A stretch of 64,000 bases of DNA, taken from assembly GCF_003334405.1 (NCBI RefSeq), contig NZ_QOWM01000003.1; one strand, 5' to 3'. Made by a program: the position numbers. The DNA comes from Escherichia coli (GTDB taxonomy: Bacteria; Pseudomonadota; Gammaproteobacteria; Enterobacterales; Enterobacteriaceae). Shown one piece after another: positions 38,601 to 41,600 of the stretch. Every line of letters begins with the position of its first letter. The stretch's first letter is position 1.

Positions 38601-41600
38601 GCATCAGTAATGTTGTTGGGCGAACGGTATTACGAATGAGTGGAGCGGTAATAAATACACAAAGCAGCGAACCCACGGTGTAGATACTGAGTAGTTTGAT
38701 CGACATAGTGTATGACATGCCTGCAACAAATTGTCCGTACTGTGCCAGCCACTGGCTAACCAGATAAAACGTTGCCATTGAGATATAGCCATATAAGGTA
38801 TAACTGGCTAAATAGATAATTGAACAGCGATGTTCCGTAGAGCTGGTGGTTTTCTTTATGACAGGTAAGCGACGACCCGGATGGGGTGGGAACGTACAAC
38901 GGTATAAAAACAGAGCGTTAATAAACATAATGCCTGCAGCAATCATAAAGGACCAACCGAACCACAGTTCAGCCCACACTAACAGGCTAATGATTAGCGG
39001 TAATAAAAATTGTCCGCTGGAAACAAATGCTTTAATTAAAATATTGGCTGTCCCAGGTGAGCGTGGAAAAGCTTCCATCAAACTGGGATAAGTGCCTGCA
39101 TCGAGAAAACTGTTTGCCATTCCCGCCAGAAAGCCAAAAACATAAGCGATAATGATGTTATTGGTCTGCAGGATGCCAAAAAAGAAGGCCATATAGCAGC
39201 ACATCCCGAGCATGATAAAAGGGCGGCGACCAAAGCGATCGGATAATAATCCTGCAAAAAGCAAGACACTTAATCGACCAATGCCCAGCGATGAGATAAC
39301 TATCGAGACACCCGCGGCATTAGTCTGCCAAAGTGTCTCCAGCGAGGCCATATTCAGGCTCATCAAAAGGACGCCCATACCATGCACCAGGTAATTAAAA
39401 TACAACCCAAGTGCGGTAGGGAAATAGGGATTTTTCATAGGTTCTACTTAGCAAAGGTGCTTTAAAAAGTGAAGCGATGTTGTGTCAGCATCCGTTCATT
39501 ATTGTTGTAACAACGACAATTCCTTTCTGTGGAAAAATTAACAAAGCCGCTCCAGATCGTGTGCATATAATTCAGCAGCTACCGATTGATAGATCTTCCA
39601 GTCAATAAAATTGCCATCAGGGTAGACTCGTTGAAATGCGGTTAAGTCGGGGAAAAAACGCATGGTGTTGTTGCCGATGCGGTTATTTATTTTCTCTATG
39701 ATGGCATGAAGATGTTTTTTTCTTTGCTGACGCATAGCCAACAGTTGCTCGACTACACGATCAGGAATGGCACACTTGCCATTTTCCCACTGACGCCAGC
39801 TTTCACTGTCACCGGTCTGGGCAATCCAGGTCGCGCATTCATCAATAGTCATGGCAAAAATATGGCGGAGTGCCTGGAGTTCATAAGCGTTCATCGTGTA
39901 ATGGCTGCATGAAATAAACAATAAAATATAAATAACATTATCAGCCTGCTGACGGCTTGAAGAGAGTCACAGTATCTTGTGCAACATTATTGGAAAGAGT
40001 GAGGGGCGAGGTAGCGAAGCGGAAAAATGTTAAAAAAAAGCCCATCGTGGGAGATGGGCAAAGACTACACACAGCAATTCGTTGTTTCACTCAGGGGATT
40101 TCCATGCTTATAAATCAATATGTTGATTTATAACCGTGAGCTAATAGTAGGCATACGGACTTTTTGCGTCGATCAGATTCGTCTCATTAGTTTAAAAACT
40201 GTAAAGAATTTGCGACAGGTACTACCAGCTGAATGGCGGTAAGCAGGAAAATATGGGGAAGAGCAAGCAAATATCAATTAGCGGTGGTTAACAATCAGGC
40301 GGCAGAGCCGCCTGATGAGAAATTACTTATTCGGTTTCTCGATTTCGCCAAGTTCTTCGAGAATTTCTTCCGGTTGGTCCGTCGGCGGCGGGACTTCTTC
40401 CACCCACGCGGCAAACAGACGCCAGGAAACGGCTAACAGAACCGGACCAATAAACAGACCGATCATCCCGAAAGCAATCAAACCACCAATAACGCCAGAG
40501 AGAATCAGGATCAGCGGTAAATCGGCACCCATGCGAATTAACATTGGGCGGATGACGTTATCCAGCGTGCCAACCACACCGCTCCACACTAACAATACCG
40601 TTCCCCAGGTGGTATCGCCAGTCCAGTAGAGCCAGATAATCGCCGGAATCAGTACCGGCAACGGGCCAAGCTGGACAAGGCAGGAGAGGATCATTAACAC
40701 CGTTAGCAACGTTGCATAAGGTACGCCGGATACGGCGAGGCCGATACCGCCAAGCACTGCCTGTACTAACGCCGTCACCACCACACCCAGCGCCACCGCG
40801 CGGATAGCCTGTGCCGCCAGCAGCACGGCGGCATCTCCGCGAACGCCTGCCAGACGGGTTGCAAAATGGCGAATGCCTTGTGCCACCTGTTCACCGCGCC
40901 AGTACAGCAGGGCACTGAAGAGAAGCATCAGCGCACAATGCACCATAAAGCGCCCGATATGCGCCGCCTGCCCAACGAACCAGGTGGTGGTGGTGCCAAT
41001 ATAAGGGCGGACTTTCGCCATGATCGCCGTCCCCCCCATATCCAGCAAGTTGTGCCAGCCTGCATACAGCTTCGCGCCAATCACCGGAATGGTATTAAGC
41101 CACGCCAGATCGGGTAACGTCATGTCACCGCTGGAAATGGCTTTAATTAGCGGGCCGCTGCCGTCGACGATACTGTTAACCAGCAAAGCAATAGGGATGA
41201 TAAACACCATCACTAATAACAGCGTCATCACCAGAACGGCGAGAGAGCGGCGGCCAAACATGATCTTTTGCAAACGTAACAATACCGGCCAGGTGGCGAT
41301 AACCACCGTACCGGCCCATGCAAAGCCGAGAATAAAGGGTTGAACAATCCACAGACATGCCACAATCATGATGGCTAAAAACAGCACCGAAAGCAGAATT
41401 TGTGCGACATCCCTGGGCTGACGAACATTTACCATAACTACTTTTCACCTTTTTTGTGCGTCAAATCGTCGACGCGACGTGAACACGCGAAACTCACCTG
41501 CATAATGATGAGCAATTTCAGCGGTTTTTAACAGGCCGATTCTGCCCTTAATTCTGATGGGCGTGTTAGAAAAAAATGTGGTACAACAACTCAGGCAACA

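Follow-up and report, generated by a model that had tools for sequence, protein, structure and literature searches.

DsrA, ArcZ and RprA use the same anti-antisense mechanism on rpoS. DsrA and ArcZ are unrelated to RprA in sequence and answer to other signals, RprA being the one that is controlled by the Rcs phosphorelay. All three have been reported to bind the rpoS 5' leader with Hfq (PMC4152358). RprA itself was described to act directly on the structure of the rpoS mRNA, to need Hfq and to be activated by RcsC/RcsD/RcsB under envelope stress (PMC4152358). Transcription of rprA strictly needs RcsB, as assayed with a PrprA-lacZ fusion (PMC6298664), and is repressed by LrhA (PMC5861431). The RcsB homodimer box, TN(G/A)GAN4TC(T/C)NA, was defined structurally in Salmonella, where a PrprA 23-mer, said to span -53 to -33, was co-crystallised with RcsB (PMC7913699). 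Beyond rpoS, RprA represses csgD and ydaM (PMC4152358) as well as hdeD, and it activates ricI in Salmonella (PMC5861431). Further, narP is repressed both by nt 30-70 of RprA and by a processed form that comprises its last 47 nt (PMC9262595).

Here we analysed a stretch of 64,000 nt from Escherichia coli (RefSeq assembly GCF_003334405.1, contig NZ_QOWM01000003.1), which we refer to as the window. A first-pass annotation had read RprA on the reverse strand of a 428-bp gap between ydiL and ydiK that is left open by the ORF track, had described it as ending in an intrinsic terminator and as activating rpoS translation, and had named a covariance-model scan as the check.

The rprA locus of the window

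Searching the entire window with cmscan and Rfam 15 gave a match to the RprA family, RF00034, at 40030-40137 on the minus strand. Its score of 118.5 bits is well above the gathering score of 70 (E = 1.6e-16), and the match spans model positions 1-108 of 108 and is not truncated. Read 5' to 3' on the minus strand, positions 40032-40137 give ACGGUUAUAAAUCAACAUAUUGAUUUAUAAGCAUGGAAAUCCCCUGAGUGAAACAACGAAUUGCUGUGUGUAGUCUUUGCCCAUCUCCCACGAUGGGCUUUUUUUU, which is 106 nt long and has a G+C-rich hairpin and a run of eight U at its end. The rprA gene of E. coli K-12 MG1655 (b4431, 1770372-1770477, 106 nt) maps exactly onto these positions, which are also those given in the first-pass annotation. The 22-nt seed of the RNA occurs once in the window, with 0 occurrences expected by chance.

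The surroundings of the gene were likewise as described. With the end of the ydiK stop codon at 40323 and the ATG of ydiL at 39894, the gap (39895-40322) is exactly 428 bp long, and both the ORF list and the RefSeq annotation place the RNA between the two genes on the reverse strand, in the position and orientation that define rprA in Escherichia. Alignment with the ydiK-ydiL spacer of MG1655 showed 100% identity over all 428 columns. A 431-nt region covering the locus was found in 5424 of 5426 complete E. coli genomes, with an identity of at least 99% in 5347 records. In those genomes RefSeq annotates rprA between ydiK and ydiL, and the gene of other strains corresponds to 40030-40137 in window coordinates. 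A chance origin is excluded by the model score together with the identity to K-12.

We conclude that 40032-40137 on the minus strand is, with near certainty, rprA, an independent gene whose product is a small RNA that depends on Hfq and acts in trans by base pairing. Every RprA-defining feature that can be tested in silico was found, and nothing in the evidence contradicts the identification. Compared with RprA of MG1655 there is no difference in sequence, neighbours, coordinates, promoter, RcsB box or terminator. The gene is RprA itself, already fully known, and brings no novelty for the window. The transcript, its dependence on Rcs and Hfq, its processing and its targets are taken from the literature on the identical K-12 sequence. 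In comparison with RprA of Salmonella enterica, the RcsB box is identical and both species share the seed and the processed form of the 3' part, whereas the Salmonella target ricI lies on the virulence plasmid pSLT (PMC5861431) and has no known counterpart in the window. The features of the locus and the other RNA matches of the window are collected in Table 1.

Table 1. Coordinates of rprA, its parts and neighbours, and of the further RNA matches in the window
Feature	Position	Strand	Remarks
rprA primary transcript	40032-40137	-	106 nt, +1 = A at 40137; RF00034 118.5 bits; equals MG1655 b4431
RcsB box TGAGACGAATCTGA	40173-40186	-	-49 to -36 from +1; matches TN(G/A)GAN4TC(T/C)NA
-35-like hexamer TCGACG	40167-40172	-	-35 to -30; 4/6 matches; directly adjoins RcsB box
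-10-like hexamer TACTAT	40144-40149	-	-12 to -7; 4/6 matches; read from sequence
5' A/U-rich hairpin	40108-40133	-	RNA nt 5-15 with 20-30; in MFE and centroid folds
Single-stranded linker	40067-40105	-	RNA nt 33-71; predicted pairing with rpoS leader
Conserved seed AUUGCUGUGUGUAGUCUUUGCC	40057-40078	-	RNA nt 60-81; exact cross-species matches; upper-case in Rfam consensus
Intrinsic terminator	40032-40059	-	Stem-loop GCCCAUCUCCCACGAUGGGC 40040-40059, then U8 40032-40039
Processed RprA region	40032-40078	-	Last 47 nt; coordinates from counting back from the 3' end
ydiK (AI-2E family transporter)	40323-41435	-	370 aa; upstream neighbour, same strand; ORF list, RefSeq
ydiL (DUF1870 protein)	39538-39894	-	Annotated 357-nt CDS; downstream neighbour, same strand; ORF list, RefSeq
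Phe leader	11233-11357	+	Rfam match above gathering score
STnc540	15198-15356	+	Rfam match above gathering score
rydB	45741-45801	+	Rfam match above gathering score, 81.6 bits
tRNA	63920-63993	-	Rfam match above gathering score
HPnc0260 antisense RNA	63793-63955	+	Rfam match; 3' end overlaps tRNA on opposite strand

Two side observations concern the remainder of the window. The HPnc0260 match probably represents the tRNA-complementary part of that model and not a real gene. Directly after the ydiK stop, at 40294-40316 on the minus strand, lies a G+C-rich inverted repeat (ATCAGGCGG CTCT GCCGCCTGAT) without a U-run. The ydiK transcript may end here, weakly or with the help of Rho, before the rprA promoter is reached.

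Promoter, conservation and structure of the RNA

An RcsB box had been expected at about 40140-40200, and a consensus match was indeed located inside this interval. When compared to the RcsB-bound PrprA 23-mer of Salmonella, the window is identical over the box and differs at one flanking base, and the predicted RcsB site overlaps the -35 region. The hexamers TCGACG and TACTAT are separated by a spacer of 17 nt and together match 8/12 consensus positions, below the 9/12 needed, so that the promoter went unreported by the sigma-70 scan. Hexamers as weak as these fit an activator-dependent promoter. The string gcctactatt, which contains the -10-like hexamer, is kept in the listed Enterobacteriaceae loci. 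The sigma-70 scan's other site, further upstream at 40277-40248, is not the rprA promoter and was not used.

Taken by itself, the RcsB-box consensus is not enriched in the window (4 matches vs 2.3 expected). The stand-alone count was therefore set aside as evidence and replaced by a cross-species test of position; the weight rests on the position of the box and on its conservation between species. A perfect match to the consensus was also seen elsewhere (TGAGATTATTCTTA, 45725-45738, plus strand), ending 3 nt before rydB. This match would overlap a -10 region and not sit at -42, and may be due to chance, given the 2.3 matches expected per window.

For the comparison, one genome per species was scanned for the 22-nt RprA core, yielding at least 120 loci, and exact seed matches were obtained in more than 120 species across the Enterobacterales. 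Among the matches listed, core loci were found in Escherichia, Citrobacter, Enterobacter, Klebsiella, Pantoea, Erwinia, Dickeya, Pectobacterium and Serratia, and also in Yersinia, Hafnia, Edwardsiella, Proteus, Providencia, Morganella, Photorhabdus, Xenorhabdus and Arsenophonus. We then searched a 100-nt window at the expected promoter position of each locus for the RcsB box, with a downstream window of the same size serving as a control. Among the matches listed, the box was present upstream in 105/109 testable loci and in 1/109 control windows, and it most often lies 108-109 nt before the core. On the basis of these counts, the gene has kept its RcsB box throughout the order, including at loci where the 5' half of the RNA can no longer be aligned. 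What this adds to the described gene is comparative detail: the RcsB box and the 3' seed extend order-wide, whereas the rpoS-pairing linker is not conserved beyond the Enterobacteriaceae and their closest relatives.

The core loci of Edwardsiella ictaluri (L022 6364-6385) and Edwardsiella hoshinae (L025 1410-1431) gave no RcsB-box match in the expected upstream window. Among the matches listed, these two are the only single-copy chromosomal core loci without the box, and in neither is the 5' half related to that of the E. coli RNA.

These data also bear on the idea that the segment, instead of being a gene of its own, acts in cis within the mRNA of a neighbour, as the ydiK 3' UTR or as a leader or attenuator of ydiL. 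All three genes lie on the same strand, with the RNA starting 186 nt past the ydiK stop and ending 138 nt before the ydiL start, and some read-through from ydiK is conceivable given that the hairpin just past its stop has no U-run. The RNA nevertheless has its own promoter elements and its own strong terminator, and the RcsB box is found at a fixed distance upstream in the 105 of 109 loci (among the matches listed). Additionally, the transcript was reported to be strictly RcsB-dependent in the PrprA-lacZ fusion (PMC6298664), and the seed module is found in phages as well, away from any ydiK or ydiL. We therefore regard a cis-acting origin as highly improbable and retain the free-standing gene.

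The RNA folds with a predicted energy of -25.8 kcal/mol and is more stable than its shuffled versions (z = -2.5). For the analysis of covariation we used an alignment of 72 non-identical sequences, all alignable from end to end, and counted in it the pairs of the MFE structure. Of all cells in the paired columns, 90.5% were paired, compared to 34-41% when the 3' partners were slid by 1-3 columns. Changes on both sides were observed at 12 pairs vs 4.9 in shuffles, and for the whole structure 0/500 shuffles reached the observed value by any measure.

The 11-bp 5' hairpin showed compensatory change in 10/12 tested pairs among the 72 sequences. The 4-bp first hairpin of the Rfam RF00034 consensus (nt 2-5 with 19-22; window 40108-40136, minus strand) was paired in 63.6% and showed no compensatory change, and is not supported by this alignment. 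Covariation thus favours the long 5' hairpin over the short one in the Rfam consensus. A 2-bp helix of the MFE fold (nt 35-36 with 43-44) had no covariation and 72% pairing and was dropped. The 5-bp helix inside the seed never varies, which is uninformative since the seed served as the search key, and the invariance of the seed in the alignment follows from the same fact.

At the 3' end the terminator scan detected a 7-bp stem with 5 G-C pairs (40059-40040) followed by T8, and the first-pass annotation was right on this point too. The terminator was paired in 99.8% of cells, with compensatory changes in two pairs across the 72 sequences. The conserved 3' seed is thus followed by a Rho-independent terminator and its U-tail, as is usual for a 3' end that binds Hfq. 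The processed 47-nt form starts exactly where the order-wide conserved core starts.

A 49-codon ORF with a GTG start (39941-40090, minus strand) appears in the mechanical ORF list and overlaps the 3' half of the RNA, which could suggest that the locus encodes a small protein. This ORF, however, runs through the terminator and extends about 90 nt beyond the 3' end of the RNA, and it is therefore untranslatable from the RprA transcript. Indels between species in the linker and in the terminator loop are not multiples of three, and conservation follows the paired stems of an RNA instead of a reading frame of codons. We consider the chance that the locus encodes such a protein to be vanishingly small, and the non-coding RprA reading is kept.

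Pairing with rpoS and other regulatory roles

In order to assess the proposed action on rpoS, we took the nlpD-rpoS region from an E. coli genome. In its own MFE fold, positions -124 to -94 of the rpoS leader pair with -18 to +12 and cover the Shine-Dalgarno sequence and the AUG. For the linker (nt 33-71) we predicted a duplex with rpoS -134 to -94 of -32.4 kcal/mol (z = -4.5); its exact register is calculated from pairing energies, and experimental mapping may place it differently. Shuffled linkers reached a mean of -16.6 kcal/mol (sd 3.5), and 0/2000 dinucleotide shuffles reached -32.4 kcal/mol. The best window for linker binding along the rpoS leader is the same arm that pairs with the ribosome-binding site, so that the linker is predicted to be complementary to the inhibitory arm of the 5' leader. 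Folding of full-length RprA against the 190-nt rpoS leader forced a whole-molecule duplex; 239/1000 shuffles were as good and this calculation was discarded, the controlled test of the linker against the upstream arm taking its place. The predicted linker pairing agrees with the published anti-antisense mechanism.

We propose the following sequence of events. Envelope stress would act through the Rcs phosphorelay and bring an RcsB dimer to the box at -49 to -36. RcsB would activate the otherwise weak sigma-70 promoter, giving rise to a 106-nt RNA that would end at its own intrinsic terminator. The linker would then pair with the long 5' leader of rpoS in its upstream arm; this arm normally folds back onto the ribosome-binding site, and linker pairing would free the site and raise the synthesis of RpoS. 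RprA and its processed form (last 47 nt) also regulate other mRNAs, with csgD, ydaM/dgcM, hdeD and narP being repressed and ricI, in Salmonella, being activated.

The claim that RprA activates rpoS translation is thus backed by the predicted complementarity of the linker to the inhibitory arm, and covers only part of what the RNA does. In rprA knockouts the levels of RpoS were little changed, and csgD responds at lower levels of RprA than rpoS (PMC4152358). For this reason the claim is correct but incomplete, and activation of rpoS may not be the dominant physiological output.

Along these lines, RprA might act mainly as a repressor, via its linker and 3' seed, of mRNAs for biofilm formation, acid resistance and the nitrate response (csgD, ydaM, hdeD, narP), with rpoS being secondary. 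The weak effect of knockouts on RpoS and the greater sensitivity of csgD (PMC4152358) speak for this, as does the fact that beyond the Enterobacteriaceae and their closest relatives the linker is not conserved, with the 3' seed and the RcsB box being kept. The linker is, however, strongly and specifically complementary to the rpoS leader, and direct action on the rpoS mRNA has been reported (PMC4152358). We regard a mainly repressive role as somewhat unlikely. The two roles are compatible and neither excludes the other.

Second copies and phage modules

In three genomes (L086, L106 and L048) the RprA core and terminator occur twice, with the second core of the first two at 334-355 and 6610-6631, respectively. 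The 5' part of the second copy is unrelated to RprA in L086 and L106, and in L048 it is host-like only over the linker. Two of the three second copies are located downstream of a gene for a cI/LexA-like repressor and beside Cro-, cII- and O-like genes.

The copy in L048 belongs to Phytobacter massiliensis, where two loci (L047 814-919 and L048 1165-1284) share a contig and are separated by about 8.1 kb. A direct repeat of 69 nt, which extends from the linker of RprA to the end of the terminator, bounds some 8 kb of phage-like DNA that holds a C4 antisense RNA (RF01695, 65.8 bits) and two ORFs, one tape-measure-like and the other Ner-like. The second copy scores 77.8 bits and thereby reaches the RprA gathering score, and has no RcsB box. 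No integrase ORF of at least 150 aa was seen in the segment of about 8 kb. The arrangement looks like integration of a mobile element, or recombination, at rprA, and an origin of this pair as att sites is possible.

A BLAST search of RprA against sequenced phages identified the RprA 3' module in three groups. The first are lambdoid Escherichia phages (LLS, L123 2412-2548; Eeyore; Flotzy), the second comprises vB_EcoM-606R2 (L124 2437-2550), -689R2 and -611R5, and the third are lytic, N4-like Erwinia phages (Ea9-2, L125 2001-2048; Tellus; Frozen; Rexella; Gutmeister). In all three groups the seed AATTGCTGTGTGTAGTCTTTGCCC is exact, an exactness that is partly a result of the search design. The terminator stem behind the seed is a different one, and a T-run comes after it. 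The module of phage LLS is located 419 nt after the prophage repressor gene, and that of Ea9-2 directly after the gene for thymidylate synthase.

In IMG/VR we found at least 120 viral contigs (L126-L245) that carry the exact seed of 22-24 nt with a terminator hairpin of their own and a U-run. Among the IMG/VR matches listed, a host-type linker or 5' hairpin was detected in none of the viral contigs. The viral modules occur in at least 52 distinct upstream contexts and include many compensatory terminator variants. We also asked for a homologue of one of four repressor proteins (cI-like) upstream on the same strand, which was present in 95/120 viral contigs among the matches listed; in these 95 contigs the repressor stop codon lies 229-1480 nt (median 581) before the seed. 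The phage copies have remained unannotated since they score only 40-50 bits against RF00034, below the gathering score.

We considered that the modules could be attP or att-site remnants of integration into rprA and rejected this for most copies, because in prophage contigs from isolate genomes the module is located 4-12 kb from the nearer end. Their place beside a repressor gene, away from the contig ends, and their presence in lytic phages also speak against an att-site origin. Our tentative view, held with somewhat less than even confidence, is instead that the chromosomal rprA gene is the original of a seed-terminator module (the last ~47 nt) that was copied repeatedly by phages. Judged from their sequence, these modules may be phage-encoded mimics of the RprA seed. 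No description of RprA-like phage modules was found in the searchable literature, which covers subscription journals in part and thus offers weak evidence of novelty.

For the window, a textbook small RNA gene accounts fully for the 428-bp gap in the ORF track, and the value of the result lies in its correct annotation. Through this gene, envelope stress sensed by Rcs feeds into both the general stress response and the control of biofilms. If the phage modules are expressed, prophages would run the seed-dependent part of the RprA regulon independently of the Rcs envelope-stress signal; alternatively, the modules would compete with RprA for targets or for Hfq. The phage-borne modules could matter more than the gene in the window, as a possible case of phages copying a regulatory RNA of their host.
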